This document shows positions 12,494 to 29,150 of a stretch of 43,916 nt of DNA, piece after piece. The stretch's first letter is position 1. Each line of letters begins with the position of its first letter. Source of the DNA: Flavobacteriales bacterium (GTDB taxonomy: Bacteria > Bacteroidota > Bacteroidia > Flavobacteriales_D > JAHECK01). The DNA lies in the NCBI GenBank assembly GCA_030591505.1, contig JAUVAY010000003.1:1-43916 (forward strand), given 5' to 3'. Both the position numbers and the translations under genes were made by a program. The notes below the pieces were generated by a model. It was given only the letters and a program-made list of their open reading frames with translations, did no database searches and was not told the DNA's origin.

Positions 12494-13393
12494 ATGAAGA
12501 GAATTCTTTTAATAATAATTATCGCATTAATTCCTTATTTGGTAATTGCTCAAACATTTAAGCCCTATACCATTGGGGTAATAAATGAAAAACCACTAAA
12601 TGAAGTAAAAAACTCTGTAGCTTCTGCTATGCAAACCAATAATTTTGATGTTGTTGGTGAGTATATGCCCGCCAATGATAAAACGCGTTGGGTCTTGGTA
12701 GTAACACATAATGAGTTACTAAAAGCAGTAGCAAAAGAAGGCGGATTACGTGGTTTTGCAGCTACATTAAGAATCGCCATAACCGAGGAAGAAGGAAAAA
12801 CATTTATTTCTTACACCAGTCCTGAATATTGGGGTAGAGCTTACTATCAGGATTCATTTGATAATGTCGCTAAAAATTATAAGACTGTTTCCTCCGATTT
12901 TGTAAAAGCTATGAGTACACTTGGAAGTTATGATGGAAATGTTTTTGGTTGTGAAAAAGGATTAGAAGCCAAAGATTTGCTGAAGTATCATTACATGATG
13001 GGGATGCCTTATTTTGATGACACGGAAGAACTGGAAGATTTTGATAATCAGGCAGAAGCCATAAAGAAAATAGAAGCCAATTTAAAGAATGGTGTAGACA
13101 ATGTGAAACAAGTCTATAAAGTTGACATTCCAGACCGTGATATGGTTTTATATGGTTTTGCATTGGGTGGTGAAAATGGAGAATCAACTTTTTTACCAAT
13201 CATTGATATAACAAAGCCATTGCATACTGCATTTCTACCTTATGAGCTACTCGTAGTAGATGGAGAAGTACATATTCTTCACGGAAGATTTAGAATAGCC
13301 ATCGCCTTTCCTGACCTAACGATGGGAACATTTACAAAGATCATGTCAACTCCAGGCGATATTGAAGATATGTTGGAGGAATTAGTGGACTAA
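12494..13393 (+). CDS. Exported protein of unknown function, possibly two DUF302-like repeats
   Basis: Sec signal (MKRILLIIII...VIA-Q). Segments PLNEVKNSVASAMQTNNFDVVGEY and HTAFLPYELLVVDGEVHIL resemble DUF302 patterns; YHYMMGMPYF is Met/His-rich. Confidence 0.6.
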   Translation: MKRILLIIIIALIPYLVIAQTFKPYTIGVINEKPLNEVKNSVASAMQTNNFDVVGEYMPANDKTRWVLVVTHNELLKAVAKEGGLRGFAATLRIAITEEEGKTFISYTSPEYWGRAYYQDSFDNVAKNYKTVSSDFVKAMSTLGSYDGNVFGCEKGLEAKDLLKYHYMMGMPYFDDTEELEDFDNQAEAIKKIEANLKNGVDNVKQVYKVDIPDRDMVLYGFALGGENGESTFLPIIDITKPLHTAFLPYELLVVDGEVHILHGRFRIAIAFPDLTMGTFTKIMSTPGDIEDMLEELVD

Positions 13394-13436
13394 ATATAAT
13401 GTACGTCTTATAGATAACCCATTGCAATTGGGTTGT

Positions 13437-13465
13437 AAAGGTCGAGTGTAAACTCGACCTTTTTT
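13437..13465 (+). terminator. Intrinsic terminator
   Basis: AAAGGTCGAGT-GTAA-ACTCGACCTTTTTT. Confidence 0.85.
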
Positions 13466-13759
13466 ATTTTATATACAGCACAATTACTTGATATGTTTGA
13501 CGCGATAACTTGATATATTCAGTGTGTTAATTTGCTGACAATGTCATAATAGTGTCACTTTATATTCCAAATATGAATATATCTGCCTTTTTCGAAAACC
13601 TGCTTACTTCATAACGTTTTCAATATCACAGCATAATTGACACGTAAAATTAATGAAATAATTATAAGTAATATATTGAATGCGTGTTACTTATGTAGAT
13701 ATATGCAATGATTATCTGTGTTAATGTAAGTAGAATAAATAATATTTATGTCTCCGCGT

Positions 13760-13796
13760 ATGATTTCAATCAATACTATCTGTGACCTAAATCACA
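13760..13796. promoter_or_regulatory. Perfect TGTGA-N6-TCACA operator (CRP/FNR- or Rex-type) with an adjacent FNR-like box
   Basis: TGTGA-CCTAAA-TCACA at 13781-13796 and ATGAT-TTCA-ATCAA at 13760-13773. The same palindrome occurs at 23356-23371. Confidence 0.65.
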
Positions 13797-13890
13797 TTTG
13801 TAAATAATCAGGGTCATAAAATAATCACTATTTGTGATGGACATTTACTGTAAATATTGACAAAAACAAATGTTCAAAAAAACAAATATC

Positions 13891-15117
13891 ATGAAAACAA
13901 AATCATTTTTAATGTTAATGACACTTGGAGGCGCACTCCTTTTTACTACATCTTGTAAAGACGATGTTGAAGATCCTCCTCCACCTCCTCCTCCGGGACC
14001 GGGTGAAAGTACAACTGAATTAAAAGTAGCTAAATTCACTTCTGCACCAGACATGGATGGAACTATTGATGACATGTGGGCAAATGCTCAAAAATTAGTA
14101 GGTACTACTTCTGTTCCTACATTAGATCCAAGAGATACTTACTTAAACTCTGATGGAGAAGGTACTGAAGAAGATCTTGGTTTATTTTACCCATACTCAG
14201 GAGAAGAAAATGACTTCACATTACGTGCTGGTTATAAAGACGACAGAATCTATTTCTTAATGGAATGGGTTGATGGTGATGATAGTAAAGACAGACAGTC
14301 TTGGTACTTTGATGAAGATGATCATCTTTGGAAAGGTGAGCATAAATATGCTAACGAAGTAAATGACAAATTTTACGAAGATAAATTTGCATTCTTATTT
14401 CCAATAGGAGAGGTTAATAATTTCAGTAGCTCTACTTGTTATGCTACTTGTCACCAAGCTTCATCAATCGCAACTCCAAAAGACAAACATACTAGACACT
14501 ACTTAAAAGAGGATGGTCAATTAGTTGATATGTGGCATTGGAAACGCGTAAGAGGAACGTATATGGGTCAAATTGATGATCAACAAATGACTTATGTTGC
14601 CCCTCCTTACGATTCAGGTTCAAATGGTAGAACTGGTGACGAAGGTGGAGCTGGTTATGCTAACAACTCACAAACATTATTCAATGGTTCTGTAGATGTA
14701 AGTGTACCTCTATATGTTGTTCCTAATGGAACAGATTATTACTGGATCAGTGTTGATGACTTCGGTGGAAGTGCAGTATTAGTAGAATCTGTTGATGAAA
14801 TGGGTGTTTTAACATTACTTGGTGGAGCTACCATCGATCCTAATGGTGATACTGGTTATGCACAAGGTTCAGGTAACAAACGTATTCCTAGTGTTACTAC
14901 ACATGCATTTACTGGTGGAAGAGCTGATATTGAAATCACTGCTGTATATACTGGTTCTGGTTGGATCTGTGAATTCACACGTTTACTTGACACTGGTGAT
15001 GTTGATGATGTAGTATTTGATATCACTGAAGAATTAGACTTTGGTTTAGCAATATTTGATAACGCTGCAATCGCACACGGAATCAAGCCAGGTCTGAAAA
15101 TGACTTACGTTCAATAA
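13891..15117 (+). CDS. EB_dh / DOMON-type heme-binding lipoprotein (ethylbenzene dehydrogenase gamma-like)
   Basis: Lipobox LFTTS-C then KDDVED, poly-Pro linker, APDMDGTIDDMW, IYFLMEWVD, YEDKFAFLF, CYATCH, DMWHWK, WICEFTRLLDTG, FGLAIFDN. Start at the ATG of MKTKS (13891). Confidence 0.8.
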   Translation: MKTKSFLMLMTLGGALLFTTSCKDDVEDPPPPPPPGPGESTTELKVAKFTSAPDMDGTIDDMWANAQKLVGTTSVPTLDPRDTYLNSDGEGTEEDLGLFYPYSGEENDFTLRAGYKDDRIYFLMEWVDGDDSKDRQSWYFDEDDHLWKGEHKYANEVNDKFYEDKFAFLFPIGEVNNFSSSTCYATCHQASSIATPKDKHTRHYLKEDGQLVDMWHWKRVRGTYMGQIDDQQMTYVAPPYDSGSNGRTGDEGGAGYANNSQTLFNGSVDVSVPLYVVPNGTDYYWISVDDFGGSAVLVESVDEMGVLTLLGGATIDPNGDTGYAQGSGNKRIPSVTTHAFTGGRADIEITAVYTGSGWICEFTRLLDTGDVDDVVFDITEELDFGLAIFDNAAIAHGIKPGLKMTYVQ

Positions 15118-15134
15118 TTAATATAACATTATTT

Positions 15135-15165
15135 ATGGGGCGTCAATCAACAGTTGGCGCCTCAT
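15135..15165 (+). other. Intergenic stem-loop without U-tract (mRNA stabiliser or partial terminator)
   Basis: ATGGGGCGTCAA-TCAACAG-TTGGCGCCTCAT pairs with G-U wobbles, 18 nt after the stop. Confidence 0.5.
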
Positions 15166-15274
15166 TAGTATATAGTCAAGCGGTCTGAATAACATTTAAA
15201 AAATTGACTATTAAGATCTTTGAAATATATTTTCTTTAAATTTAAAGAGTCAATATTAACAAACAGATACTATT

Positions 15275-15646
15275 ATGGAATTAAAAAGAGCTTTTAAAGC
15301 ACTCGGCACTTGTTTGATCATTGCCATGCTATTTACCACTGCTTGTCAAAGCGACAAGGTCTACCCTCCACAAATTGAAGGAGATGTGAGTTACGCAAAT
15401 GATATGCAACCCTTCTTTAACGCAATGTGTACCGAATGTCATAATGGCACAGGTATTCCTCTTAACTTATTAGCAGATGTTTCTTATGATGCTCTATTCA
15501 CCGGAAACTATGTAGATACAACTGATGCATCAGCAAGTGTGCTCTATGTAAAAATAGTAGCCCCTAATAGTATGGAAAGTTATGCTTCAGATGTTCAAAG
15601 GTCAATGACATTGAAGTGGATCGAACAAGGAGCTAAAAACAACTAA
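15275..15646 (+). CDS. Monoheme c-type cytochrome lipoprotein
   Basis: Lipobox FTTA-C, CTECH, candidate distal Met (NSME), C-terminal KWIEQGAKNN typical of small cytochrome c domains. Confidence 0.85.
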   Translation: MELKRAFKALGTCLIIAMLFTTACQSDKVYPPQIEGDVSYANDMQPFFNAMCTECHNGTGIPLNLLADVSYDALFTGNYVDTTDASASVLYVKIVAPNSMESYASDVQRSMTLKWIEQGAKNN

Positions 15647-15656
15647 AATAAAAGCT

Positions 15657-16580
15657 ATGAAAAAGATTTTTAATACACCGACGAATACGATGAAACTTAG
15701 CTTTACATTTCTTTTGGTTTTTGTAATGCTTTCAATGTCTACCACTGTTTCTGCACAAGATGAAACTGAAGCAAAAGAAGAAATTAAGAAACCTGAAAAA
15801 CCAGCACGACCGGCTTACGAAAGTGCCTACTGGTTTGATGGTCAGAATGGAGTAGTATACAATAAGAAAACACTAGAATTTGCTATTCAACACCGTTTTG
15901 GATTAATCGGATCAGACCCTAAAGAATTATTAGGCCTTTATGGACCTTCAACCAATACTCGACTAGGATTATCTTATGTACCGATAAAAAATCTTAGTGT
16001 TGGCTTAGGTTACACTAAGTATAAATTCGTATTGGATCTGAATGCAAAGTACATGATCCTGACGCAAACAAAATCGAATTCCATGCCTTTTTCATTGAGT
16101 TACTATGTGAATATGGGAATCGAGATGCAGGATAAAGAGAATTATGAAACCTACTCTCATCGAATGAATTATTTCCATACCCTTATATTAATGAGAAGAT
16201 TTAATAAAAATTTCTCAGCACACATCTCTCCTTCATTCATTCATTATAATGCAGTAAAAGTTGAAGTACAAGACGATGGAAGTGAATTGTCAATGGATAA
16301 TAATTCTTACGGAATAAGTGTTGGTGCACGCTATAAGATCAACTCTACCTTAATCATTATGGCTGGTTATGACCAACCTTTAACGCAGCATGCTATTAAC
16401 CAACCGCTGCCTTCAATAAATGTTGGACTAGAGATCGCCACTTCAAATCATGCCTTCCAGATCATCTTTACCAATTACAACAAAATTCAGCCTCAAGAGA
16501 ATTTTATGTATAACCAAAATGATTTTGGTCAAGGTCAGTGGCTTATCGGATTTAACATAACTCGCTTGCGCTCATTATAA
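15657..16580 (+). CDS. Outer-membrane beta-barrel protein (DUF5777-like)
   Basis: Sec signal, LEFAIQHRFG, alternating amphipathic strands, GLEIATSNHAFQIIFTN, terminal strand WLIGFNITR. Confidence 0.8.
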   Translation: MKKIFNTPTNTMKLSFTFLLVFVMLSMSTTVSAQDETEAKEEIKKPEKPARPAYESAYWFDGQNGVVYNKKTLEFAIQHRFGLIGSDPKELLGLYGPSTNTRLGLSYVPIKNLSVGLGYTKYKFVLDLNAKYMILTQTKSNSMPFSLSYYVNMGIEMQDKENYETYSHRMNYFHTLILMRRFNKNFSAHISPSFIHYNAVKVEVQDDGSELSMDNNSYGISVGARYKINSTLIIMAGYDQPLTQHAINQPLPSINVGLEIATSNHAFQIIFTNYNKIQPQENFMYNQNDFGQGQWLIGFNITRLRSL

Positions 16581-16604
16581 TTCATAAGAACTTAAAAACA
16601 GAAG

Positions 16605-16877
16605 ATGAAAAAGAGTTCGGAAAATAAATCAGGATTATCAAGAAGAAAGGTCCTCCCTCTCATTGGGGGAGGTTTGTTACTTCCTTTTCTAGGTTTTGGA
16701 AAAAAGAGAGACAAGCCATTCGAAGAAGAGGATGCTTCTTACCAAACAATGCTTACGAAAGATGGCAGACTTGTAAAAGTCAAGTCCCACGTAGTTAAAA
16801 AATCGAAAAAGGTCGAAAATAAAGTTTCTAATCGCTCACTCCTTAAATGGCTTAACAAAGACCAAAAAGGAACTTAA
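16605..16877 (+). CDS. Small basic protein with a twin-arginine-like leader
   Basis: SRRKVL followed by hydrophobic PLIGGGLLLPFLGFG; gaps of 24 and 11 nt to its neighbours. Confidence 0.7.
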   Translation: MKKSSENKSGLSRRKVLPLIGGGLLLPFLGFGKKRDKPFEEEDASYQTMLTKDGRLVKVKSHVVKKSKKVENKVSNRSLLKWLNKDQKGT

Positions 16878-16888
16878 CTGTTAACATT

Positions 16889-17842
16889 ATGAAGAAATCT
16901 GATGATAAATCAAGAAGAAGCTTTCTTAATAATGGGCTTACCATTGGTGCATTTTCTATTATTAGCGGATCGCTGATCGCATCTAAACTTTTTGGAAATG
17001 ATGAGCCTGATGAAGAGTTAGTTGAAGTAATGACCACTGAAGGAGACATAATTAAAGTCCCTGCAAGTGAAGTGGAAGAAGTCCCAAAAAAACCTGCATA
17101 CAATGAACGTGAAGGATTTGCGAATCGCAAATTTGTAATGGTCGTTGATCTGGCAAAATGTAGAAATGCACTAAAATGCCAGGATGCGTGTAATAAACAC
17201 CATTATATAGTTGGCGATAATGCATGGTTAAAAGTTTATAAAATGCAAGAGAGCGAACAAACCGCTCCTTACTGGATGCCAATGATGTGTCAACATTGCG
17301 ACGAACCTGCTTGTGTAACGGTTTGCCCGGTAGATGCAACTTTTAAACGACGTGATGGCATCGTACTTATAGATAACGAACAATGCATCGGTTGTCGTTT
17401 CTGCATGGCAGCATGCCCCTACTCTACTCGAGTATTTAACTGGAATGATCCAGAACAAGAAACAGCACTAGCAGAAGAAGAACATCCAGCTGAACATTCC
17501 GCTGATCATTGTGGACATCCGAGTATTAAAGGAACTGTTGACAAATGTGATTTCTGTCCACATAGCATAGACAAAGGAGAACTACCTCACTGTGTTGCTG
17601 CTTGTCCGAATGATGTGTTCTTATTCGGTGATGCTTATGAAGATACTGTTACCAATGGTAGTGGTCAATCTTACCGATTAAGCGAATTGCTAGAAGAAAA
17701 AGCTGGCTATAGACTTATGGAAGGACTGGGTACAGAACCAAGTGTTTTCTACTTACCTCCTGTAGATAGATCAGACGCCTTTGAAGATGGGCTAAAAGAG
17801 TATAGAGAATTTAATTCCGTTAAAAAACCTGAAGAGCTATGA
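16889..17842 (+). CDS. NrfC/DsrO/PsrB-type multi-[4Fe-4S] protein with Tat signal
   Basis: SRRSFL Tat motif; FVMVVDLAKC; CQHCDEPACVTVCP; CIGCRFCMAACPY; KCDFC...PHCVAACP; LGTEPSVFY. Confidence 0.93.
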   Translation: MKKSDDKSRRSFLNNGLTIGAFSIISGSLIASKLFGNDEPDEELVEVMTTEGDIIKVPASEVEEVPKKPAYNEREGFANRKFVMVVDLAKCRNALKCQDACNKHHYIVGDNAWLKVYKMQESEQTAPYWMPMMCQHCDEPACVTVCPVDATFKRRDGIVLIDNEQCIGCRFCMAACPYSTRVFNWNDPEQETALAEEEHPAEHSADHCGHPSIKGTVDKCDFCPHSIDKGELPHCVAACPNDVFLFGDAYEDTVTNGSGQSYRLSELLEEKAGYRLMEGLGTEPSVFYLPPVDRSDAFEDGLKEYREFNSVKKPEEL

Positions 17843-19149
17843 GTAAATATGATGACTTAGTAGCAGAATTAGCGCCACGGAAATTCACGAAATTAGGCGT
17901 TAGCTGGACCATCGGTTTAGCAATTGTAACTTTAATTGGAATCGCTGCCTATATCGATCAGATAATTAAAGGACAAATAGTTACCAATATGCGTGACTAT
18001 GTATTATGGGGAGTATACATATCGAATTTTGTGTTTTTTGTTGCTATAAGTTTTGTTGGCTCCCTTACCGCCGCAGTTTTACGATTAACACATAAAACCT
18101 GGCGAACTCCATTGGTGAGAATTGCTGAAATAATTGCTTTTGCAGCCATCGTTTTAGCTGGGGTCACTATTATATTAGATATGGGTCGCCCGGATAGATT
18201 ACTTAATCTATTTATACACGCTCGTTTACAATCTCCTATTACCTGGGATGTTGTGATCATTACAACTTATATTGCAATCAGTGCGCTGATACTTTATATT
18301 CCACTATTGCCGGATCTTGCTATTCTTAAAGATAAGTTTAAAGATAACTGGACAGGGATTTGGTATAAACGACTCTCCTTAAAATGGAAGGGTAGTGTTA
18401 AGCAATGGGCTATTCAAAAAAAATCTATCAAGATAGTCGCAATACTTATTATTCCTGTTGCACTAATCCTGCAAACAGTTGATGCATGGCTATTCTCTAC
18501 CACTTTCAGAATTGGATGGGATAGCACTAATTTAGGTCCTTATTTTATCGCAGGTGCCTTTGTAGTTGGGGTTGGCGGATTGATCTCGGTTACTTATGTG
18601 CTACGTAAAGTTTACAAACTGGAAAAATACATTACAGAACTTCATTTTGATAAATTGGGTAAAATGCTCGTTTTTGCTTGCCTTGTTTACCTTTACTTTA
18701 ATATAAGTGAGTACTTATTACCCGCGTTTACAGCTCCAAAAGCAGAAGAAGCTCATTTACGTGAACTCTTCGTTGGACATTATGCACCGCTATTTTGGTT
18801 TGTGACTATTGGTGGACTAATCCTACCCATTATTCTATTGATATTCCCATGGGGTCGAAAACCAAAAGTGCTTTTCTTTATAGCTATTTTGGTTGTGATC
18901 ACATCATGGTGGAAACGCTATTTAATAGTTGTTCCTGCATTATTACACCCATTTCTACCTGTACAAGGAGTACCGGAATCTTGGCACAGCTATTTCCCGA
19001 GTATGCACGAATGGGCTATCGTAAGCGGTACGCTTGCTGCAGCTCTTCTCATAATTACGATCTTAGTAAGATACGTGCCCATCATTCCAATACATAGGAC
19101 GGCAACAGAAATGGGGATATTACCTAACGATAAAGATGAACAATCATGA
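17839..19149 (+). CDS. NrfD/PsrC/DsrP/ActC family integral membrane quinone-interacting subunit
   Basis: WGVYISNFVFFVAIS, RIAE, DMGRPDR, SPITWD, about 10 TM helices, WWKRYLIVVP; ATGA overlap with the Fe-S gene. Confidence 0.93.
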   Translation: MSKYDDLVAELAPRKFTKLGVSWTIGLAIVTLIGIAAYIDQIIKGQIVTNMRDYVLWGVYISNFVFFVAISFVGSLTAAVLRLTHKTWRTPLVRIAEIIAFAAIVLAGVTIILDMGRPDRLLNLFIHARLQSPITWDVVIITTYIAISALILYIPLLPDLAILKDKFKDNWTGIWYKRLSLKWKGSVKQWAIQKKSIKIVAILIIPVALILQTVDAWLFSTTFRIGWDSTNLGPYFIAGAFVVGVGGLISVTYVLRKVYKLEKYITELHFDKLGKMLVFACLVYLYFNISEYLLPAFTAPKAEEAHLRELFVGHYAPLFWFVTIGGLILPIILLIFPWGRKPKVLFFIAILVVITSWWKRYLIVVPALLHPFLPVQGVPESWHSYFPSMHEWAIVSGTLAAALLIITILVRYVPIIPIHRTATEMGILPNDKDEQS

Positions 19150-20003
19150 AAGCAAATTTAATTTCAAAATATGCATTACTGATCTTCTTAGGATCTTTCT
19201 TGATGATCATCAGTACGCAGCTTCAAGGACAAGATAAGTTCAAAGCAAAACTCTCTGTCGATTACCAAAAAACGATGGGTGAAGGTTCTGTTTTACTCAT
19301 CAAGGTTAAATACAAAGCAGAAAAAAAGTATATACCTGCAAGTTTTCTTAAGGTAAATATCTATGAGCAAATAAATGAAGATTCACTGGCTTTGATCGGA
19401 GATATTTCTACCGACCATGGAGGGAGTGCTGAATATGCTCTGCTACTAAATAGTGACTTTAGCGATTCGCTCTACACCTATCGATATATAGTAAAGATCG
19501 AAAACGATGATAAATTTAAAGACGCTAAAAAGGCTATCAAATTCATTGATGTAAACTTAGTTGCCAAAGCAATAGTAGAAGACAGTGTACATTACATTTC
19601 AGCTACTTTAACGGACGCTACCGGAACAGCAATTGAAGGTGCTAAACTGGAAGTAAAAGTGCATCGATTGTTTGCTCCACTCACTATTGGTGAATCTTCT
19701 TATAAAACAGATGATAATGGCAAAATTCTTGTACCTATTGAAAACCCATTACCGGGAGTAGATGGAATTTTAACTTTTGAAGTTATGTCTGACAGTAGAA
19801 GCTATGGAATTGCAAAAATTATTTTTGATGCCCCTATTGGAAAAGTGGTGACAGACCAATCTACTTTCGACCAACGAACAATGTGGGCTCCCCCTCGAAA
19901 TACACCTTATTTCTTATTGATATTTCCAAACCTTCTAATATTAGGTATTTGGGCAGTTATTCTACTTCTAGTAAGTAACCTTTATAAAATATATAAATCT
20001 TAA
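19146..20003 (+). CDS. Hypothetical exported beta-rich protein with C-terminal membrane anchor
   Basis: N-terminal signal, beta-strand-rich body, hydrophobic helix YFLLIFPNLLILGIWAVILLLV near the C-terminus; ATGA overlap with the NrfD-type gene. Confidence 0.75.
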   Translation: MKANLISKYALLIFLGSFLMIISTQLQGQDKFKAKLSVDYQKTMGEGSVLLIKVKYKAEKKYIPASFLKVNIYEQINEDSLALIGDISTDHGGSAEYALLLNSDFSDSLYTYRYIVKIENDDKFKDAKKAIKFIDVNLVAKAIVEDSVHYISATLTDATGTAIEGAKLEVKVHRLFAPLTIGESSYKTDDNGKILVPIENPLPGVDGILTFEVMSDSRSYGIAKIIFDAPIGKVVTDQSTFDQRTMWAPPRNTPYFLLIFPNLLILGIWAVILLLVSNLYKIYKS

Positions 20004-20013
20004 ATAAACAAAC

Positions 20014-20418
20014 ATGAGAACTTTAAAAAATTTATTACTATTCACATTTATAACATTAGGGCTTTACGCCTTTAACACGGCAGTTCAGGAAGACTGGGTA
20101 GTACCTGAAAAGTATAAAGCGATGGAGAACCCTACAGATGTTGAAGATGATGAAAATATTGAAATTGGTGAAGAATTGTATATGAAACATTGTAAATCTT
20201 GCCATGGAAAAGAAGGTTTGGGTGACGGGCCAAAAGCAGAAGAGCAAACAGGTGAATTAGGTGATTTTTCATCTGAGGAGTTTCAAGCTCAATCTGATGG
20301 GGCTTTATTTTATAAAACAACTATTGGACGAGACGATATGCCAAATTATGATAAGAAGATGCCGGATGATGAAGATCGATGGTTGATCGTAAATTATATG
20401 AGAATACTAGGTGAATAA
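20014..20418 (+). CDS. Class I monoheme cytochrome c (periplasmic)
   Basis: Signal peptide, GEELYMKHCKSCHGKEGLGDG, SDGALFYK, DMP (distal Met), RWLIVNYMR. Confidence 0.92.
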   Translation: MRTLKNLLLFTFITLGLYAFNTAVQEDWVVPEKYKAMENPTDVEDDENIEIGEELYMKHCKSCHGKEGLGDGPKAEEQTGELGDFSSEEFQAQSDGALFYKTTIGRDDMPNYDKKMPDDEDRWLIVNYMRILGE

Positions 20419-20439
20419 TTAATATTAATAATTGTTTTG

Positions 20440-20470
20440 ACCGGCAGACTAATTGTTTGCCGGTTTTTTT
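20440..20470 (+). terminator. Intrinsic terminator closing the redox cluster
   Basis: ACCGGCAGAC-TAATT-GTTTGCCGGT followed by a T-run. Confidence 0.85.
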
Positions 20471-20521
20471 ATTTCCTTTTTTCGTCCATATCTTACTATC
20501 TTGTCGATATAAATAAAGCTA

Positions 20522-20971
20522 ATGAATGATACGATAATAGAAATTATAAAAGGGATGCTCGCTCCAGGACTAATGATCTCAGCCTGTGGTCTTTTGTTAC
20601 TCGGCATGAACAACAAATATTCCTTGGTTGTAAACAGAATAAGAACATTAAATTACGAGTTTAGGGCATTGGATAGTGACAACCTAAGCAGAAAAGAAAG
20701 TATCCTGACGCAACTTCCGTTATTGATTCAACGGATGAAATTAATTAGAAATGCAGTTTGGCTTTATACCATCGCGATCGCACTCTATATCTTCTCTATT
20801 TTTTCTATCGGTTTCTTCTTTCTGAGTGGAAAAACCTTGACTTTATCAATACTCTCCTTTTCATTCTTCATATTGGCATTGATTGCACTTCTTTGGGGCA
20901 TTATTCATGCAGCAAAAGAGGTTAGACTAGGGTTTAATATTCTTAAAATTGAAACGAAAGACATTTTATAG
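20522..20971 (+). CDS. DUF2721-like membrane protein
   Basis: MLAPGLMISACGLLLLGMNNKYSLVVNRIR, R..LIRNAV, three hydrophobic helices. Confidence 0.75.
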   Translation: MNDTIIEIIKGMLAPGLMISACGLLLLGMNNKYSLVVNRIRTLNYEFRALDSDNLSRKESILTQLPLLIQRMKLIRNAVWLYTIAIALYIFSIFSIGFFFLSGKTLTLSILSFSFFILALIALLWGIIHAAKEVRLGFNILKIETKDIL

Positions 20972-20989
20972 ATTCATAAAATCACTCAA

Positions 20990-22030
20990 GTGAAAAAATT
21001 TATAGCCTTTGCTGTTCTTCTCTATATAATATACTTCATTGTAAATACGCTTTATGATTCAGGCGTTTTTAAAACGATAGAAAACCATTCTCTATTTCAA
21101 AACATAAAGTCCTATGAAACTATTTATGGACCTGAAGATCTTGATATCGACCATAAGAAAAATTCTCTATTCATATCGTCAAGCGATAGAAGGAAATTGA
21201 GTTTAGGCTTGCCTGCTAATGATGGCATATATCTCTTAGATCTAACTAAAGATAGCATACCCTATAAATTAGCAACAAGCTTTTCAGAAGAATTCCATCC
21301 ACATGGTATTTCTTATTTACACCATGATGATAAGGATTACTTATTTGTGATTAATCATAATAAGCAAGGTCACTCAATTGAATTATTCCATTATATGAAC
21401 GATACTTTATTTCATATAAGAAGTTTTAAAAACGAGTTGATGATAAGTCCGAATGACCTGATCGCCACCGATATTGATAATTTTTATGTTACGATCGACC
21501 ATGGAACAAAAGAAGGTCTATGGAGGACATTAGAAGACTATTTACGCCTACCCTACTCCTATGTTTTATATTTTGATGGTAAAGAGTACTCAAAAGTATA
21601 TGAGGGCTTAAATTATGCAAATGGGGTGAACATCTCCAATGATGGAAACACGCTTTATGTCAGCGAAACAACGAGTGGAAAATTATCAGCACTAAATAGA
21701 AATAAAAATACGGGGCAACTAGAACTCCTTTTTAGCAAAGAACTAAAAACAGGTCTCGATAATATAAGTATTGATAACAATGGGGATCTTTGGATCGCCG
21801 CTCACCCTAAATTATTCGATTTTCTTGCTCATTCAAAAGACTCAACGAAGCATTCACCTTCTCAGGTTTTAAAAGTAAATGTCAGTAAAAATGATTTTAC
21901 TATAAGTGAGATCTACTTAGATAATGGAGTGAAATTTTCAGGGTCCAGTACAGGCCTTAGTGTTAATAATGAGGTGTTTATCGGTCAGGTTTATGATGAT
22001 AAAATTCTAAGAGGAAAATTACTTCCTTAA
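20990..22030 (+). CDS. Paraoxonase/arylesterase-like six-bladed beta-propeller lactonase (SMP-30/PON superfamily)
   Basis: GPEDL, FHPHGIS, VINH, SPNDL, YANGV, GLDNI, AAHP, SPSQVL; N-terminal hydrophobic helix; GTG start. Confidence 0.85.
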   Translation: MKKFIAFAVLLYIIYFIVNTLYDSGVFKTIENHSLFQNIKSYETIYGPEDLDIDHKKNSLFISSSDRRKLSLGLPANDGIYLLDLTKDSIPYKLATSFSEEFHPHGISYLHHDDKDYLFVINHNKQGHSIELFHYMNDTLFHIRSFKNELMISPNDLIATDIDNFYVTIDHGTKEGLWRTLEDYLRLPYSYVLYFDGKEYSKVYEGLNYANGVNISNDGNTLYVSETTSGKLSALNRNKNTGQLELLFSKELKTGLDNISIDNNGDLWIAAHPKLFDFLAHSKDSTKHSPSQVLKVNVSKNDFTISEIYLDNGVKFSGSSTGLSVNNEVFIGQVYDDKILRGKLLP

Positions 22031-22099
22031 AGATGATAAATATTGCCTTTTTTATTAGTGACATTCTATAGTTTTAATCATGAATTATAAGAAGCATTC

Positions 22100-22597
22100 A
22101 TGAAACAGTTGAGCTTAGCGATCACTATACTATTCTTCACATCATGCTATAATAATTCGAATAGTAAGCATGAACACATAGGAGTTCCTGAAGAAAACTC
22201 AATTAATTCCCTTTTGAGTCAAGAAGCAGAAAGAGGAAAAGAATTGTACAATGTCTGCCTTAGCTGTCACAACCCAGCATTGGACACAATGGTCGCCCCC
22301 CCAATGCTGTACGTTCAACAACTGTATAAAGACTCATTTCCTAAAAAAGAGGCTTTTATTAAGAATATAGTAAGGCATATCAAATACCCCAATGAAAAAA
22401 ATGCATTAATGAGTATCGCAATAGATAAATTCGGTCTCATGCCAGCCTATCCTTTTTCTAATAAGGATCTATCAGATGTAGCAAGCTATGTGTACGAAGG
22501 GAATTTTGAAGACGGACGATTGCATAATCACGAAGAGATGCATTCAGAACATATTCATAAGAAAAAAGAGAGCCAGGCAGAGAATTTACTTGATTAA
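22100..22597 (+). CDS. Monoheme cytochrome c lipoprotein
   Basis: Lipobox FFTS-C, GKELYNVCLSCH, APPM, FGLMP, His-rich tail. Confidence 0.85.
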   Translation: MKQLSLAITILFFTSCYNNSNSKHEHIGVPEENSINSLLSQEAERGKELYNVCLSCHNPALDTMVAPPMLYVQQLYKDSFPKKEAFIKNIVRHIKYPNEKNALMSIAIDKFGLMPAYPFSNKDLSDVASYVYEGNFEDGRLHNHEEMHSEHIHKKKESQAENLLD

Positions 22598-22707
22598 TCA
22601 AGCTAAAGAAGGTAAATCCTATTATTAATTACATTCAATCATGTATAAAAGTCATTTTTTGGGGCTTCTGATATAATTACTTTTATCCCGTATAAAAAAC
22701 ATATAAG

Positions 22708-22941
22708 ATGAAACAGTCAATAGAATATTTAAACAAAGCTTTAGAATACCTTGAAAAATGTGAACTCGCATCACCTTATAAAAATGTAGTTGATATCAAC
22801 AATGCTAAAATAGCTTTACAAATGGTTGAGTTGGAGCATAAGATCGAAGATGCAAAACAACTACATCACCATGAGGATGCTGATAAAATGAAGGAAGAAT
22901 TAAACATCTTATCTAAAAAGATAAATCCTTCGTTGGCTTAA
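22708..22941 (+). CDS. Small hypothetical protein
   Basis: 77 aa helical-looking ORF with an AT-rich leader, followed by a terminator. Confidence 0.55.
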   Translation: MKQSIEYLNKALEYLEKCELASPYKNVVDINNAKIALQMVELEHKIEDAKQLHHHEDADKMKEELNILSKKINPSLA

Positions 22942-22981
22942 CAAAATCATCTCTTTTAGTTAATTACCGAATTTTTATATC

Positions 22982-23017
22982 AAAAAGCTAGCTTAACATA
23001 AGTTGAGTTGGCTTTTT
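22982..23017 (+). terminator. Intrinsic terminator
   Basis: AAAAAGCTAGCTTAAC-ATAA-GTTGAGTTGGCTTTTT. Confidence 0.7.
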
Positions 23018-23355
23018 CTATTAAAAAATAGTATCACAATATAAATTGATTCACTTTTCTTCCTATTTCATCTGAAATACGCCGAAATTAGGAAACACTA
23101 AACCTAAACTCAATAATTAATCCTTCTCCTCCTGTTAACGACTTCCTTTTTAGGGTAAAAACGTGGTATATACAATGCTACTTCTTAGGTATAGCAAGCT
23201 CTCACAATGTTAGTATATAATTAATCTGCTATTTATGAAATATCAATAAAATGTTGATTTAATACCACTAATGTTTATAAAATTTAGTATCTGATATTTC
23301 TTTAACATTTTTATTGACTTAATATGTGCCTTTTGTGACACAACCATGACTTTAT

Positions 23356-23371
23356 TGTGACGTATATCACA
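23356..23371. promoter_or_regulatory. Perfect TGTGA-N6-TCACA operator (CRP/FNR- or Rex-type)
   Basis: TGTGA-CGTATA-TCACA, 83 nt before the multiheme cytochrome ATG; same motif as 13781-13796. Confidence 0.65.
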
Positions 23372-23454
23372 TTTATCATTAACCTATATCATGATTTATT
23401 CTGTAATCCTCCTATAATTTAATAGAGAATTAAGTATTAACCAATTACAAAAAA

Positions 23455-24564
23455 ATGAAAAAAATAATAAAGCTTCTATCGGTTTTTACAATAGCAATAT
23501 TAGTAGGAACCTCTTGTGCAAAAGATGGAGTACAAGGCGACAAAGGAGAAGCTGGAGCTAATGGTCTTGATGGTTCAGATGGAACCGCAGGATGTATTCA
23601 GTGCCATACTTCTGATGAAAATATGCAAATAAAAGGGGCTCAATGGGCCTTAAGTAGTCATGTAACTGGTGGTCATATGAGTGGCTACTATGCTTCCCGT
23701 GATGGGTGTGCCGATTGTCACTCTAGTCAAGGTCATCAGGAAGTTGTAGCTACAGGCGAATGGGATAATATAGCACCTGCTAATCCATTACCAGCAAACT
23801 GTTATACTTGTCATGAAATTCATCAAACCTATACTGAGGCTGACTGGAACTTCAGAGTTAGTGACGATGGTATTCCATTTTTAGTAAATGATTATGTAAG
23901 TGATCAAAGCAATGCAAATACTTGTATTCAGTGTCACCAATCTCGAATTGCTGAACCTATATTAGATATTAATGCTACTGCAGAGGTTACAATTACAAGT
24001 AAACGATACGGACCTCACCATGGACCACAAGGTAATATGACTGCTGGTGTAGGTAATTCAGGTGCTTATGAATTAGCTGGATCAATGGCTTATAGTAATT
24101 CCATGCACGTAACAAGTACAGATGTAAACTGTGTATCATGTCACCTCGCAAGTGGAGCCGGAAGTGGTGGAAATTTTGAATTAGGTGGACACAGTAACAA
24201 TGTAAGTGTAGGTGATTGGACGGAAGGAACTAAGTCAGTTAATGTAAATGGATGTACTACTTGTCATACAGATCAAGTCAGCAATGGAGATATTACAGAC
24301 TTTGTATCTATAGCAAGAGATGCAAACCTACTGCTTATTGATGACCTGAGAACATCCCTTTATAACCTTGGCTACCTGGATGACGATGATTATGTTGCCA
24401 ATAATAATGTAACCATATCAGACGATAATCACTTGACGGTATCTCAACCCCATGCTGCTGCTATCTATAACTTTAAATTTGTAACTGAAGACCAGAGCAC
24501 ATTAATCCATAACCCTACATATGCTAAAGCATTAATTCAAAATTCAATCGAAGCTTTGCAATAG
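23455..24564 (+). CDS. Hexaheme c-type cytochrome lipoprotein with N-terminal collagen-like repeat
   Basis: Lipobox VGTS-C; 7 Gly-X-Y triplets; six CxxCH motifs (CIQCH, CADCH, CYTCH, CIQCH, CVSCH, CTTCH); extra His residues as candidate distal ligands; C-terminal IHNPTYAKALI. Confidence 0.92.
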   Translation: MKKIIKLLSVFTIAILVGTSCAKDGVQGDKGEAGANGLDGSDGTAGCIQCHTSDENMQIKGAQWALSSHVTGGHMSGYYASRDGCADCHSSQGHQEVVATGEWDNIAPANPLPANCYTCHEIHQTYTEADWNFRVSDDGIPFLVNDYVSDQSNANTCIQCHQSRIAEPILDINATAEVTITSKRYGPHHGPQGNMTAGVGNSGAYELAGSMAYSNSMHVTSTDVNCVSCHLASGAGSGGNFELGGHSNNVSVGDWTEGTKSVNVNGCTTCHTDQVSNGDITDFVSIARDANLLLIDDLRTSLYNLGYLDDDDYVANNNVTISDDNHLTVSQPHAAAIYNFKFVTEDQSTLIHNPTYAKALIQNSIEALQ

Positions 24565-24585
24565 CAATTTTATGATGTATGTTTT

Positions 24586-24617
24586 AAAAGCCAGCTGTAC
24601 TTTCAGTTGGCTTTTTT
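24586..24617 (+). terminator. Intrinsic terminator
   Basis: AAAAGCCAGCTG-TACTTT-CAGTTGGCTTTTTT. Confidence 0.85.
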
Positions 24618-24825
24618 ATTGATCCATTTATTAGTTTCTAATTAAATACCAAAATTTAACCACAATGACGCAAAGTAAGCACGGAGTTCACAAGGAAAAA
24701 ACGATAAATGAATAATGACTGTTGCAATATTAAATTACAATTGCAATTCTATTATTTTCGAATCTCTGTGACCGTTTTATACACTATGCATTCATTTCTA
24801 AAGTACATCAATATTGAATTCTTCA

Positions 24826-25392
24826 TCCCTTTTGCTTGATCAAAAGGAATCAAAAATCAAGAAAGAAGGACTTAGTTATCAACTAAGGGCCAGGTTTGTG
24901 GGACGCCGTCCCTCTCTGAACAAATGTTAAAACATTATAAACGTAATGGAACTCCTTGGGTCGTTCTAAAGGAGGACATTGTCTTATTGACAATGAGCCA
25001 GGTTTGCGGGGTGATTGTTTTAACACATTTGTCCATTTACGACCACGCAGCCCTACCATTCTTTCTGGCCAACGCACTTCTTCCACTATTTGTTAATTTA
25101 AAGTCTACTCTTAATTGAATTAAAATGTTTTATGAGCGCTATGAAGATATTGCCTAACAAGTGATATTAAGGTGTGATGGCTTATCCAATACGGCGGGCC
25201 TGTGATGGGGTGAATATAAAAATGCGTAATAATAAATGAAAGGGGCTTGTCCTCTGGTTTGGCTACAAACCAATACTTTCATATTGTTATAGCATTTTTA
25301 TAGAGCGGGGAGTAGCATCGTATTGGAAAGATTTTCATCCCACATTCTCGCTCAATTGTCTTTAAACAATTGCCGCTTTTCTAAAAAGTAAC
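24826..25392. other. Highly structured non-coding region (candidate ncRNA(s) or non-autonomous element)
   Basis: Several nested inverted repeats: 24920-24934/25016-25032, 25185-25193/25319-25327 and 25215-25225/25292-25302. Also a duplicated hairpin-GCCAGGTTTGYGGG module. Confidence 0.45.
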
Positions 25393-25502: not shown

Positions 25503-27224
25503 CTACACCTCCTCGCTTATCACCTGCTTATAAGTTCCAAGATCCCTAAGATCCGACCTTCTGATATAAGCGATCTTACCCCTATTCTCATCACCTTTCG
25601 CTTTGATAAATAGCTCAGCTATATTTTTGTAAGAAGGATCACGCATCGCATCTTGCAATAATAAATGTCCCATTACAATATTACCCGCAACCTCAACCAA
25701 TCGTCGTGCATGAAAATCAGTAAATTCACTGTCATCAGTTGCTTTTACTTCCTCAACGACCTCTTCGTAAGCATGAGTCATTTTTGCCAGCTCGCGTTTT
25801 AGGTATTCCGATTCCGGATTGACAGGCATCGCTTCGTATTCTTTGATTTTCGTTAAATAAACTCCCGTCATAACTCCTCGTATTGCAGCAATCACCTGTA
25901 ATTGAGACGTTCCTTCATAAATAGAGGTTATTCTCGCATCTCGAAAAATTCGTTCAATTGGGAAATCTTTCATAAATCCTGCTCCACCATGAACCTGAAG
26001 TGCATCATAGGCAATAGTATTACTTAATTCCGAGGCGGTGAGCTTTAATAATGGCGTAAACACATCCGCAAAACGCTGATAGGTCTTCATCTCTGTCCGC
26101 TCTTCCTTTTCTAACTTTCTATCCTCAGAAATTTCGATATAGCACTTGTACATATCCACCATCCTTGCAGTTTCATAAAGCAAAGAACGATGTGCAGCAA
26201 TATTTATTCGCATATTGGTCAGCATTTCATAAACAGCAGGAAACTGAATGATGGGCTTTCCAAACTGGGCTCTTTCCTTCGCATATTTTAAGGCTTCTCG
26301 ATAGGCAGCTTCCGCTATCCCGATCGACTGTGCACCAACACCCAAACGAGCAGAATTCATCAAAGACATCACATATTTGATCAATCCCATTCTTCGGTTT
26401 CCAATTAAATAGGCAGGAGCATCATCAAAAACCAATTCACAAGTTGGTGAGCCTTTTATACCAAGCTTGCGCTCAATACGTCTTACTTTAACCGCCTTCT
26501 CTCTTCTATCATAAACGAATAATGATAATCCACGTGCATCTTGCGATCCTTCTTCAGAACGAGCCAATACCAATGAAATATCAGCATCTCCGTTAGTGAT
26601 AAATCGCTTAACTCCATTTAAAGTCCACGTATCTTTATCTGCGTTATAAATCGCTTTTAACTGAACCGCCTGCAGATCAGACCCCGCATCGGGTTCTGTC
26701 AGGTCCATAGCTGCTGTCGCTCCTTTACTGAACATCGGTAAATATTCATCCTTCAACTTCTCAGAAGCAAATTCATAAATTGTTTCTGCACAATCTTGTA
26801 AGCCCCAGATATTGGCAAATCCAGCATCAGCACGTGAGATCATTTCACCCGCAATAATATAGGGTGTGATGGCAAAGTTCAATCCTTTATATTTTCTTGG
26901 TAAGGTCATACCGATCAATCCGGCTTCTACCAATGCATCGTAGTTCTCTTCCGTCCCTCGAGCATATTTAACTTCATTATCAATAAGTGAAGGTCCTTCT
27001 GCATCGACTGATTCGGCATTAGGATCGATCACATCTCCACTGATCTCCCCAACGATCTCTAATACTTTCTCATAGTTATCCATAGCGTCCTCGAAATCCT
27101 GAGGCGCATAATCAAACTTTTCTTTCTCAGCAAAATCTCTCTCCTTAAGATCAATGATCTTTTTCATTAATGGATGAGTAAGATGAAATTTTAACTCGGG
27201 GTTGTCATTAAAAAAATTAGCCAT
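25503..27224 (-). CDS. Acyl-CoA dehydrogenase (long Bacteroidota/anaerobe type)
   Basis: MDLTEPDAGSDL, LNGVKRFITNG, KLGIKGSPTCEL, LMNSARLGV, ERAQFGKPI, QVHGGAGF, RITSIYEGTSQLQ, plus C-terminal extension. Confidence 0.95.
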   Translation of the reverse strand: MANFFNDNPELKFHLTHPLMKKIIDLKERDFAEKEKFDYAPQDFEDAMDNYEKVLEIVGEISGDVIDPNAESVDAEGPSLIDNEVKYARGTEENYDALVEAGLIGMTLPRKYKGLNFAITPYIIAGEMISRADAGFANIWGLQDCAETIYEFASEKLKDEYLPMFSKGATAAMDLTEPDAGSDLQAVQLKAIYNADKDTWTLNGVKRFITNGDADISLVLARSEEGSQDARGLSLFVYDRREKAVKVRRIERKLGIKGSPTCELVFDDAPAYLIGNRRMGLIKYVMSLMNSARLGVGAQSIGIAEAAYREALKYAKERAQFGKPIIQFPAVYEMLTNMRINIAAHRSLLYETARMVDMYKCYIEISEDRKLEKEERTEMKTYQRFADVFTPLLKLTASELSNTIAYDALQVHGGAGFMKDFPIERIFRDARITSIYEGTSQLQVIAAIRGVMTGVYLTKIKEYEAMPVNPESEYLKRELAKMTHAYEEVVEEVKATDDSEFTDFHARRLVEVAGNIVMGHLLLQDAMRDPSYKNIAELFIKAKGDENRGKIAYIRRSDLRDLGTYKQVISEEV

Positions 27225-27230
27225 TATGAT

Positions 27231-28250: not shown

Positions 28251-28274
28251 TTATAAATTTTTTAATTTCTTATT

Positions 28275-29150
28275 CTATCCAATATTGTGATGTTCCACCA
28301 ATTCAGCCATCAACTGATCAATATCCTTATCAGTAGCTTCCAGAACTTTTGAATCCTTTGTAGTGAAAACGATATTGGTTACCTGTTTTACTTTTGTCGG
28401 AGAACCCGATAAACCTAAGTATACATCATCTGCTTTTAGGTCATTGATATCCCACTCGATAATATCGAGGTAATGACGTGTATCGTGCAGACTTATGTAA
28501 TCTTCCGACTCGTGATGCATTTCTGAAGGCGTACAGGCATGTTTATATTTCATTAAGAATTTTGCATTCCTACTTCTGCAATCAGGTGCAGATGCGGTAA
28601 CGGTCATTAATAAAGGTAATTTTGCTTCTACTGTTTCTACTCCATTCTCGAGTCGTCGCACAGCAGTGATCTTATTCTTCTCGACAGAAATTATCTCCTC
28701 AACATAGGTGATTTGTGGTATATTCAACTTCTCGGCCGACTGTGGACCAACCTGCGCTGTATCACCGTCGATCGCTTGTCTTCCTGCAAGGATGAGATCA
28801 TACTTTTTGATCTTCTTAATGGCTAATGACAGCACATAAGATGTTGCCAAGGTATCAGAACCTGCAAATTTTCTATCGGTAATTAAGATCCCTCCATCGG
28901 CACCTCTAAACATTGCTTCTCGAATGATGCTTGCCGCACGAACAGGACCCATCGTCACCAAAGTGATCGTAGTTCCTGGGTACTTATCTTTTAATAGTAA
29001 AGCTTGTTCTAAGGCTTTTAAATCCTCAGGGTTAAAAATAGCCGGTAAGGCAGCTCTGTTTACCGTTCCATTCGCTTTCATCGCATCCTTACCCACATTA
29101 CGTGTATCGGGTACTTGTTTAGCTAATACAATAATTTTTAGACCGCTCAT
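28275..29150 (-). CDS. etfB: Electron transfer flavoprotein beta subunit
   Basis: KQVPDT, FNPEDL, DRKFAGSDTLATS, GRQAIDGDTAQVGPQ, GLSGSPTKV. Confidence 0.96.
   Translation of the reverse strand: MSGLKIIVLAKQVPDTRNVGKDAMKANGTVNRAALPAIFNPEDLKALEQALLLKDKYPGTTITLVTMGPVRAASIIREAMFRGADGGILITDRKFAGSDTLATSYVLSLAIKKIKKYDLILAGRQAIDGDTAQVGPQSAEKLNIPQITYVEEIISVEKNKITAVRRLENGVETVEAKLPLLMTVTASAPDCRSRNAKFLMKYKHACTPSEMHHESEDYISLHDTRHYLDIIEWDINDLKADDVYLGLSGSPTKVKQVTNIVFTTKDSKVLEATDKDIDQLMAELVEHHNIG

Follow-up and report, generated by a model that had tools for sequence, protein, structure and literature searches.

The subject of this analysis is an operon of eight genes (g1 to g8) in a stretch of 43,916 nucleotides from a Flavobacteriales bacterium of marine sediment (contig JAUVAY010000003.1), the whole of which is called the window in the following. 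The operon encodes the components of a putative outer-membrane module (g1 to g3) and of a putative inner-membrane module (g4 to g8). With a probability of roughly one half, these components constitute a quinol-linked route which passes respiratory electrons to the cell surface as a side branch composed of two modules. Judged by analogy, such a system would act most like a porin-cytochrome conduit that is fed by a quinol oxidase resembling alternative complex III (ACIII). The gene arrangement is far beyond chance, and the same order recurs in dozens of other genomes.

Gene content of the operon and its inner-membrane module

The eight open reading frames (ORFs) are located on the plus strand between positions 13870 and 20418 and form one unit by their layout between two terminator-like hairpins (Table 1). 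From g1 to g8, the spacings between the genes are 157, 10, 24, 11, -4, -4 and 10 bp. A single transcription unit is likely, because the genes overlap or sit 10 to 24 bp apart and because terminators are present on both flanks. The alternative starts of g1 (13891) and g3 (15690) were proposed from starts that are conserved in the alignments of relatives. A scan for sigma-70 promoters yielded 56 sites, where 52.8 were expected, and is uninformative in this phylum.

The original prediction, made from the DNA letters and the translated ORFs, had described eight co-oriented, tightly spaced genes closed by one terminator, had named their products and had pointed out the lack of a catalytic Mo subunit. 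The ORF table, the spacings and the hairpin at 20439–20465 agree with this description. The list of parts was confirmed by family scans and by motifs read from the translations, namely a lipobox cysteine in g1 and g2, CX3CH in g1, CXXCH in g2 and g8, and a twin-arginine motif in g4 and g5. In the scans against Pfam and NCBIfam, g2, g4 and g7 gave no family over the cut-off. Genes for molybdopterin enzymes, NrfA, hydrogenases or ActA-like proteins are absent from the operon, and no catalytic Mo, NiFe or NrfA subunit is encoded between 13.4 and 25 kb in the window. None of the operon ORFs contains more than one CXXCH motif, and a multiheme subunit is likewise missing from the operon.

Table 1. 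Coordinates of the operon genes, the hexaheme gene and associated sequence elements in the window.
Feature	Position	Strand	Remarks
Upstream terminator-like hairpin	13437..13462	+	11 pairs and T run; closes the preceding gene and marks the 5' boundary
Perfect TGTGA-N6-TCACA palindrome (CRP/FNR-family type)	13781..13796	.	74 bp before g1 start
g1, surface-type lipoprotein of EB_dh/NxrC-gamma fold	13870..15117	+	PF09459; start probably 13891
g2, monoheme c lipoprotein, barrel partner	15275..15646	+	lipid Cys24, C52-x2-C55-H56
g3, DUF5777 outer-membrane beta-barrel	15657..16580	+	PF19089; likely start 15690
g4, small twin-arginine protein of 90 amino acids without Cys	16605..16877	+	S-R-R-K-V-L motif
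g5, NrfC-type Fe-S protein exported by twin-arginine translocation (Tat), four Cys groups	16889..17842	+	Fer4_11, 1e-19
g6, NrfD-family integral membrane subunit, ActC-like over its full length	17839..19149	+	PF03916, 1.6e-35
g7, signal peptide, two immunoglobulin (Ig)-like beta-sandwiches and C-terminal membrane helix	19146..20003	+	translation and structure model
g8, class I monoheme cytochrome c with N-terminal hydrophobic segment	20014..20418	+	Cytochrome_CBB3 and Cytochrom_C matches
Operon-closing terminator-like hairpin	20439..20465	+	11 pairs, 6 GC, T run; 20 bp past g8
Second perfect TGTGA-N6-TCACA palindrome	23356..23371	.	84 bp before the hexaheme gene
Hexaheme lipoprotein, six CXXCH	23455..24564	+	3 kb downstream of the operon
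Terminator-like hairpin after the hexaheme gene	24586-24615		

When g6 was compared with solved structures, the four best matches were ActC subunits (6lod_C, 1.1e-41; 8k9e_C, 1e-37; 6f0k_C, 6.6e-36; 6btm_C, 2.2e-35), which span residues 18–420 of the 436 residues of g6. ActF was matched with only 8e-3, and PsrC was absent from the matches. Among the NCBIfam models, DsrP scored 123.1 bits, which is below its cut-off of 350. In ActC of Rhodothermus marinus, H139, D169 and D253 belong to the quinol site and R395 acts as a gate, according to a review on NrfD proteins (PMC8076601). D137 of g6 aligns with D169 and R360 with R395, and both residues are invariant in 25 relatives of g6.

The Fe-S protein g5 (317 amino acids) showed DsrO as its best NCBIfam model (184.1 bits, below the cut-off of 200), and its Pfam matches are 4Fe-4S dicluster families. 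The solved structures matched were ArrB (6cz7_B, 1.4e-27) and PsrB (2vpw_B, 4.3e-27), and ActB (6btm_B, 4.9e-18) was matched in its C-terminal Fe-S part alone (residues 770–944). For g8, the matches were a cytochrome c552 (9vr0_A, 5.9e-15) and ActE (6btm_E, 2.1e-7). The model of g7, with a predicted local distance difference test (pLDDT) value of 86.6, consists of an N-terminal helix, two Ig-like sandwiches and a C-terminal membrane helix, and its fold matches are generic Ig/FN3 domains only. The invariant residues of g7 are exclusively G, R, T, P and W, with no conserved Cys, His or Met. It was also considered that g4 might be a copy of the N-terminus of g5; this was rejected due to a BLASTP E-value of 10, and a loose resemblance of the motifs remains.

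Judging from these matches, the module g4 to g8 is best seen as a stripped relative of ACIII to which g4 and g7 have been added. In comparison with the ActABCDEF complexes of Flavobacterium johnsoniae (6BTM), R. marinus (6F0K), Roseiflexus (6LOD) and Chloroflexus (8K9E), g6 corresponds to ActC, g5 to the Fe-S half of ActB and g8 to ActE. Unlike these complexes, the operon lacks the pentaheme subunit ActA, the molybdopterin-like half of ActB and ActF, has g4 and g7 in addition, and shows its genetic linkage to outer-membrane genes rather than to an oxidase. A second NrfD-type subunit that might serve as ActF is not encoded on the window's contig, which gave a single PF03916 match. The genome possesses an ACIII of its own on another contig, beside an oxidase and with an ActB of 1084 amino acids; its ActC is 26% identical to g6 and its ActE 28% identical to g8, and an ActA-like ORF with six CXXCH motifs is located on contig C119. 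The earlier statement that the operon is not a canonical ACIII therefore stands as far as the missing ActA, full-length ActB and ActF are concerned, but has to be amended, since the NrfD protein is specifically ActC-like.

A periplasmic, Tat-exported Fe-S protein on a cofactor-free membrane subunit with a quinone site is a feature which the operon shares with DsrOP, PsrBC, NrfCD, QrcCD and HybAB. In contrast to DsrMKJOP, the DsrO and DsrP scores lie under the curated cut-offs and no DsrMKJ-like gene is found among the eight genes. In contrast to the Psr, Ttr, Nrf and Hyb systems, the operon encodes neither a catalytic subunit with Mo or NiFe nor a multiheme one, and PsrC is absent from the matches to solved structures. 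Judged by defining features, the operon belongs neither to ACIII nor to DsrMKJOP, Psr/Nrf, Mtr/Pcc or Cyc2, as the original prediction had held for ACIII, Nrf, Psr and Mtr. No such complex occurs among those treated in the accessible part of PMC8076601.

The outer-membrane module

The barrel g3 matched DUF5777 (PF19089) with 5.2e-67 and 226.1 bits (cut-off 23.1; model length 247 positions). In total, 675 relatives were found; the database entry of the window's own protein has 296 amino acids, and the 120 best relatives have 205–328. The alignment contains 48 invariant columns, which include H79, H245 and H265. The barrel domain comprises about 240 residues. Manual reading of the sequence gives about 12 strands, whose connections are short turns at one end of the barrel and six longer loops at the other. 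In the lipoprotein g2, C24, C52, C55 and H56 are invariant in 25 sequences, and a P-M-P segment is usual.

A co-fold of barrel and cytochrome had been suggested along with the original prediction. Mature g3 and g2 were folded together with heme in three runs and compared with three controls. The two proteins are predicted to bind each other, with a median interaction prediction score from aligned errors (ipSAE) of 0.67 (runs 0.66, 0.67 and 0.68), compared with 0.00 for the best of the controls. In the calibration, 58 of 80 solved complexes but only 2 of 110 mismatched pairs attained this score, which is only a rough guide here because own alignments and a riding ligand were used. At least 71% of the contacts agree between the runs, and the pLDDT of the partner is at least 88. 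On the side of g2, the contacts involve the N-terminal tail (residues 24–32, the first nine of the mature protein), the region of C55 and residues 96–107 near the heme site; on the side of g3, they fall in all six long loops (by our own loop assignment) and thus on one face of the barrel. Because the long loops point outwards by the usual rule for outer-membrane proteins, g2 is predicted to dock as a lid on the outer face of the barrel.

The first protein of the module, g1, matched EB_dh (PF09459) with 3.5e-32 and 112.8 bits (cut-off 33.3). Its model (pLDDT 76.5) resembles NxrC (7b04_O, 3.6e-8) and EbdC (2ivf_C, 2.4e-6), followed by CBM9. In 25 relatives, the lipid-carrying C29, a T-C-x3-C-H motif (C190, C194, H195), H210 and H403 are invariant. 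Since the T-C-x3-C-H motif is invariant, this EB_dh/DOMON-type fold appears to bind a c-type heme covalently. EbdC (2IVF_C) and NxrC (7B04_C), whose fold g1 has, are gamma subunits of enzymes of the type II dimethyl sulfoxide (DMSO) reductase family, and such gamma subunits bind heme b. Unlike them, g1 is a lipoprotein with a surface-export signal, a CX3CH motif and an extra inserted region, and it has no alpha or beta partner.

The signal peptide of g1 is followed by C-K-D-D in the window and by C-x-K-D-D in most relatives. In Capnocytophaga, C-x-K-(D/E)2 is the optimal signal for the export of lipoproteins to the surface, and acidic variants serve in Bacteroides and Flavobacterium, as described in PMC5080379. 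The exposure of the lipoproteins at the surface, which had been proposed earlier, is consequently backed for g1 by the signal in its relatives, but not for g2, which carries one acidic residue after the lipid cysteine. In the databases, relatives of g1 and g3 are named 'hypothetical', DUF5777 or by automatic labels only. For the barrel, the Protein Atlas likewise gave nothing but DUF5777 clusters.

MtrCAB of Shewanella and Pcc of Geobacter share with the operon a barrel beside cytochrome lipoproteins, binding between barrel and cytochrome (predicted in our case), an exchangeable outermost hemoprotein and linked genes for quinol dehydrogenases. The operon differs from them in its cytochrome partner g2, which carries a single heme and is predicted to sit on the barrel as a cap instead of threading through it; moreover, the barrels of Mtr and Pcc are much larger than g3, and a sequence relation to either system was not seen. 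By architecture, the pair g2-g3 can be likened to Cyc2 of iron oxidizers, which also combines one c heme with one outer-membrane barrel. Unlike Cyc2, it is encoded by two separate genes, one for a lipoprotein cytochrome and one for a smaller barrel; a fused cytochrome-barrel protein was not found among proteins of 539–2000 amino acids, although this search was weak.

Conservation, regulation and genome setting

A search of the genome collection with an alignment of the barrel yielded 563 relatives. The 80 best loci (designated with L numbers) were kept for the analysis of synteny. All ORFs of these loci were clustered into gene families (f7, f8 etc.). The loci belong to Cyclobacteriaceae, Roseivirgaceae, Chitinophagaceae, Saprospiraceae, Flavobacteriaceae and others, and cultured carriers are Terrimonas sp. 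R1 (L019), Flavihumibacter profundi and Lutibacter sp. B1 (L080). The g2 gene stands beside the barrel gene in 79 of the 80 loci and g1 is present in 60; NrfC was found in 52, NrfD in 50, g7 in 45 and a g8-type cytochrome in 53. NrfC/D, present in 52 loci, are always encoded on the strand of the barrel. Twenty-four loci are too short to judge, and four lack NrfC/D despite flanks of at least 7 kb on each side, so that 52 of 56 informative loci carry them. The family of g4, for which Pfam gave no match, occurs in 7 other loci and the related small Tat family f7 in 22, and in many relatives the small Tat gene stands before NrfC.

The general layout is X-g2-barrel, followed by small Tat protein-NrfC-NrfD-g7-cytochrome c, and tandem copies of either block occur. 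The position X is occupied by the EB_dh protein, in six loci by a hexaheme cytochrome, or by a lipoprotein of another family, such as f8, which replaces g1 in some loci and has no Pfam match. A hexaheme lipoprotein is also encoded downstream of the operon in the window (Table 1). Its family occurs in nine other loci, and in L011, L018, L061, L065, L071 and L080 it takes the first place of an arrangement multiheme cytochrome-g2-g3. It is probably an alternative surface partner that replaces g1.

For a sample of the phylum, 400 other Bacteroidota genomes were searched. The DUF5777 barrel is encoded in 166 of them, with one large family lacking it completely (0 of 87). The g7 gene was found in 12 genomes, and in the same 12 a g6 gene (37–65% identical) directly adjoins it; a thirteenth match of g7 (9e-6, in a frame of 1492 amino acids) was discounted. 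DUF5777 is present in all 12 genomes with g6 and g7, and in at least five of them it lies 2–9 kb off on the same contig. Eight further genomes contain distant g6-like genes (30–42% identical) without g7, and seven of these genomes are outside the DUF5777-positive set. All 12 genomes with the inner module thus fall among the 166 of 400 that carry the barrel, and it is the inner module whose distribution lies inside that of the outer module, not the reverse. It had been stated beforehand that the reading would fail if barrel and lipoprotein genes did not accompany NrfCD in other genomes; they do so in 52 of the 56 informative loci and in the 12 genomes mentioned above. Recurrent genes for the transport of iron, heme or metals were not found in the 80 loci, in which tandem genes for a universal stress protein (Usp), an ABC ATPase and a helicase are the recurrent extras.

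Several variations of the layout were observed. Two tandem copies of the inner module (NrfC-NrfD-g7-cytochrome c) are present in L026, L051, L061, L074 and L075. A second g2-barrel pair occurs in L019, L037, L047, L072 and L079, where it is flanked by a membrane protein (f11) and lipoproteins (f8 and f9), all without Pfam match. The tandem Usp gene is located upstream of the g1-g2-barrel block in L030, L033, L043, L052, L063, L069 and L076.

The operon and the hexaheme gene are each preceded by a perfect TGTGA-N6-TCACA palindrome, and these two sites compare with 0.02 expected in the window. In the whole genome (2.93 Mb), only three perfect sites exist. The third is located 141 bp before an operon encoding HmuY (with a tail of the type IX secretion system, T9SS), a TonB receptor and a further HmuY (contig C86, about 12572–17212; L085, 5573–10213), which suggests that the genes for heme uptake and the cytochrome operon may be under common control. 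Sites with one mismatch number 52 in the genome, of which 11 are intergenic. One of them is found 50 bp before an AlgE-like barrel gene (contig C1, 6349–15884; L086, L093), which heads a cluster for a Rieske protein, a b6/ExtP-like cytochrome b, an octaheme HAO/HDH-like cytochrome, NapA, NapG, NapH and NapB. Another intergenic one precedes the gene for an ApbC-type Fe-S carrier. Among relatives of the operon, a site with at most one mismatch is present in 9 of 67 upstream regions, roughly a tenfold enrichment over the background density (0.049 per kb).

At least five regulators of the CRP/FNR family are encoded in the genome. The set of sites fits a putative regulator of this family that would switch on respiration at low oxygen together with the supply of cofactors. 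A search for the FNR-type box TTGAT-N4-ATCAA with at most one mismatch gave 8 sites, with 5.9 expected, and thus no signal.

Elsewhere in the genome, TatC, a CcsA-type heme lyase/cytochrome c synthase, the ACIII mentioned above and three heme-copper oxidases are encoded; the oxidase genes include cbb3- and caa3-type ones. Genes for Tat export and cytochrome c maturation, whose presence elsewhere the original prediction had asked to be confirmed, are thus represented. All four molybdopterin genes are located on other contigs, and the window's contig gave no match to the Molybdopterin family. Three of the four molybdoenzymes have quinol modules of their own, NrfC/D on contigs C42 and C17 and NapGH in the case of NapA, and a distal partner for the NrfCD pair of the operon may exist. 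Other ORFs of the genome contain 28, 23, 12, 8 and 8 CXXCH motifs.

Near-identical DNA occurs in sediment and cold-seep metagenomes from four studies besides the possible source study. Contigs from metatranscriptomes (four runs of a fifth study, at least 95% alike) cover 23–27 of 30 bins across positions 13000–25000 of the window. These contigs from RNA libraries also span intergenic DNA and the terminator. They cannot show transcription or an operon.

Some further observations concern the surroundings of the operon and other redox genes. In the hexaheme lipoprotein, the lipid cysteine is closely followed by a short collagen-like stretch of Gly-X-Y, perhaps a spacer that holds the protein off the membrane. 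The interval between the operon and the hexaheme gene (20522–22941) encodes a DUF2721 membrane protein, an arylesterase/SGL-type beta-propeller, a monoheme cytochrome c with a lipobox (22100–22597) and an ORF of 77 amino acids, and none of these four genes recurs in related loci. On the minus strand at 25503–29150, an acyl-CoA dehydrogenase and the alpha and beta subunits of an electron-transfer flavoprotein are encoded. They form a common set for feeding electrons to quinone, and nothing points to a connection with the operon. Two adjacent ORFs on contig C94 (13354–17279; 612 and 701 amino acids) contain 23 and 28 CXXCH motifs, and hemes at such a density are extreme in a genome of the Bacteroidota. 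On contig C17 (2408–5645), a single frame of 546 amino acids combines an NrfC-like part, NrfD and one CXXCH beside a molybdopterin-family frame of 966 amino acids, and may represent a fused Fe-S/membrane subunit. A role of the operon in supplying electrons to lytic polysaccharide monooxygenases was dismissed, as no LPMO_10 match was found in the genome (91% complete) and no carbohydrate-active enzyme among the ORFs of the window that were scanned.

Proposed electron route and its alternatives

In the proposed route, menaquinol would be oxidized at the ActC-like g6, and the electrons would pass via the Fe-S clusters of g5 to the heme of g8 in the periplasm. g8 would then hand them to the outer module, in which g2 would form the lid on g3 and an exchangeable surface hemoprotein would be the third component, g1 here and a hexaheme cytochrome instead in relatives. 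The acceptor would be located at or outside the surface, e.g. metal oxides, chelated Fe(III), humics or another oxidant of the sediment, and the system would operate when oxygen is scarce, under a regulator of the CRP/FNR type. Crossing of the outer membrane would need a relay inside the barrel, a docking partner on the periplasmic side or a diffusible shuttle.

Several points weigh against this proposal, and the crossing of the outer membrane is its weak link. With about 240 residues and about 12 strands, the barrel cannot enclose a cytochrome as MtrB does; the strand count itself was read from the sequence by hand and not from a model, and a script for the amphipathic moment was uninformative. 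Neither a cofactor nor a segment of protein that would bridge the barrel is known, and modelled g2 is confined to one face. A gap between the hemes of about the thickness of the membrane would make electron transfer slow. The single acidic residue in the signal of g2 gives no clear indication of surface exposure. In g6, two of the four residues checked differ from ActC, with H139 aligning with D114 and D253 with L218, and due to these replacements quinol chemistry is not assured. The barrel family mostly occurs without the inner module (166 versus 12 of the 400 genomes), and most lineages clearly have an outer module that functions in its absence. A relation of the hexaheme protein to MtrC is marginal: PF22113 (the MtrC/MtrF domain) scored 40.1 bits summed over three stretches, with 25.7 bits for its best stretch in the search of the genome (cut-off 30), and the same model also responds to the genome's ActA and to two controls, E. 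coli and B. thetaiotaomicron. Furthermore, the carriers include genera known as aerobes, e.g. Terrimonas. The earlier view of a set of parts that spans the cell envelope from the inner membrane to the surface for extracellular electron transfer is consequently supported for the parts and their linkage but not for the crossing of the outer membrane. The barrel is too small for a cytochrome, and no electron step across this membrane emerged from the analysis.

The barrel might instead pass a solute (Fe2+/Fe3+, Mn, a flavin or quinone shuttle, or reactive oxygen species) which is oxidized or reduced at the mouth of the pore by g2 and g1 as a redox station at the surface and recycled in the periplasm by the inner module; one version would be the reductive acquisition of iron or heme iron. 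We regard this explanation as rather unlikely. The barrel is small, and its 48 invariant columns, many of them polar and three of them His, are consistent with a specific lumen or binding site towards whose mouth the heme-site segments of g2 face in the model. The outer module is also common without the inner one, and a non-cytochrome lipoprotein (f8) takes the first place in related modules. The palindrome is common to the operon and the HmuY/TonB heme-uptake operon, but the other candidate members of the regulon are genes of anaerobic respiration (Nap). The lack of recurrent transport genes for iron, heme or metals in the 80 loci argues against iron uptake, and four Fe-S clusters and at least three hemes would be costly for a system serving under iron starvation.

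An inward flow of electrons appears improbable. In this case, the surface hemoproteins would oxidize Fe(II), reduced humics or sulfide minerals, and the electrons would reach an oxidase via g8 or would be driven uphill into menaquinone by the ActC-like subunit and the proton gradient, which resembles the combination of Cyc2 and ACIII in neutrophilic iron oxidizers. The operon indeed joins a monoheme cytochrome and a barrel to an ACIII-like module, and the arginine that acts as the gate in the ion path of ActC is invariant. Oxidases of the cbb3 and caa3 types are encoded in the genome, and the sediment and cold-seep habitat is rich in reduced iron and sulfur. However, reduction of menaquinone by high-potential c hemes is strongly uphill, and the carriers look like heterotrophs, which have no evident need for reverse electron flow. 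Barrel and cytochrome are encoded by separate genes, with close relatives of about 300 amino acids and no fused form above 539 found. It is still less probable that the two modules are unrelated neighbors, with g4 to g8 as a periplasmic quinol:cytochrome c oxidoreductase that feeds oxidases and g1 to g3 as an independent unit. The resemblance of g8 to the oxidase-feeding ActE, the gap of 157 bp after g1, the many genomes with the outer module alone and the four loci without NrfCD within 7 kb would agree with such independence. Against this, the nested distribution (a DUF5777 barrel in 12 of 12 genomes with the inner module) and the tight synteny on the same strand in the informative loci of several families argue for a connection, as does the single terminator for eight genes; in addition, a full ACIII beside an oxidase already exists in the genome.

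Most of what is understood about extracellular electron transfer comes from Shewanella and Geobacter. For Bacteroidota, which abound in sediments, soils and water, a redox route spanning the cell envelope has to our knowledge not been described. In the literature searched, no publication was found on DUF5777 or on the combination of EB_dh, NrfD and a barrel in this phylum. There is a substantial chance that the unit of barrel and lid is new in its own right. More tentatively, and with the doubts outweighing, the DUF5777 barrel with its one-heme lid could be a new minimal gate for electrons across the outer membrane, with plug-in surface modules and, in a subset, a stripped ACIII of its own. 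The barrel itself might carry the missing redox relay by means of its three invariant His residues.

The operon is a testable candidate with defined parts, a likely regulator site and cultured carriers. It would also offer a natural 'minimal ACIII' for asking what an ActC-type subunit does alone, and g1 is unusual as an EB_dh/DOMON-type fold which apparently binds heme covalently. Even if the interpretation as a conduit fails, the barrel and the monoheme lipoprotein are among the more widespread pairs of the phylum without known function. The DUF5777 barrel is encoded in about four in ten of the sampled Bacteroidota genomes. If the barrel with its lid is indeed such a gate for electrons, electron transfer at the cell surface would be a common trait that has been overlooked in a phylum whose members are regarded as ordinary aerobic or fermentative heterotrophs.

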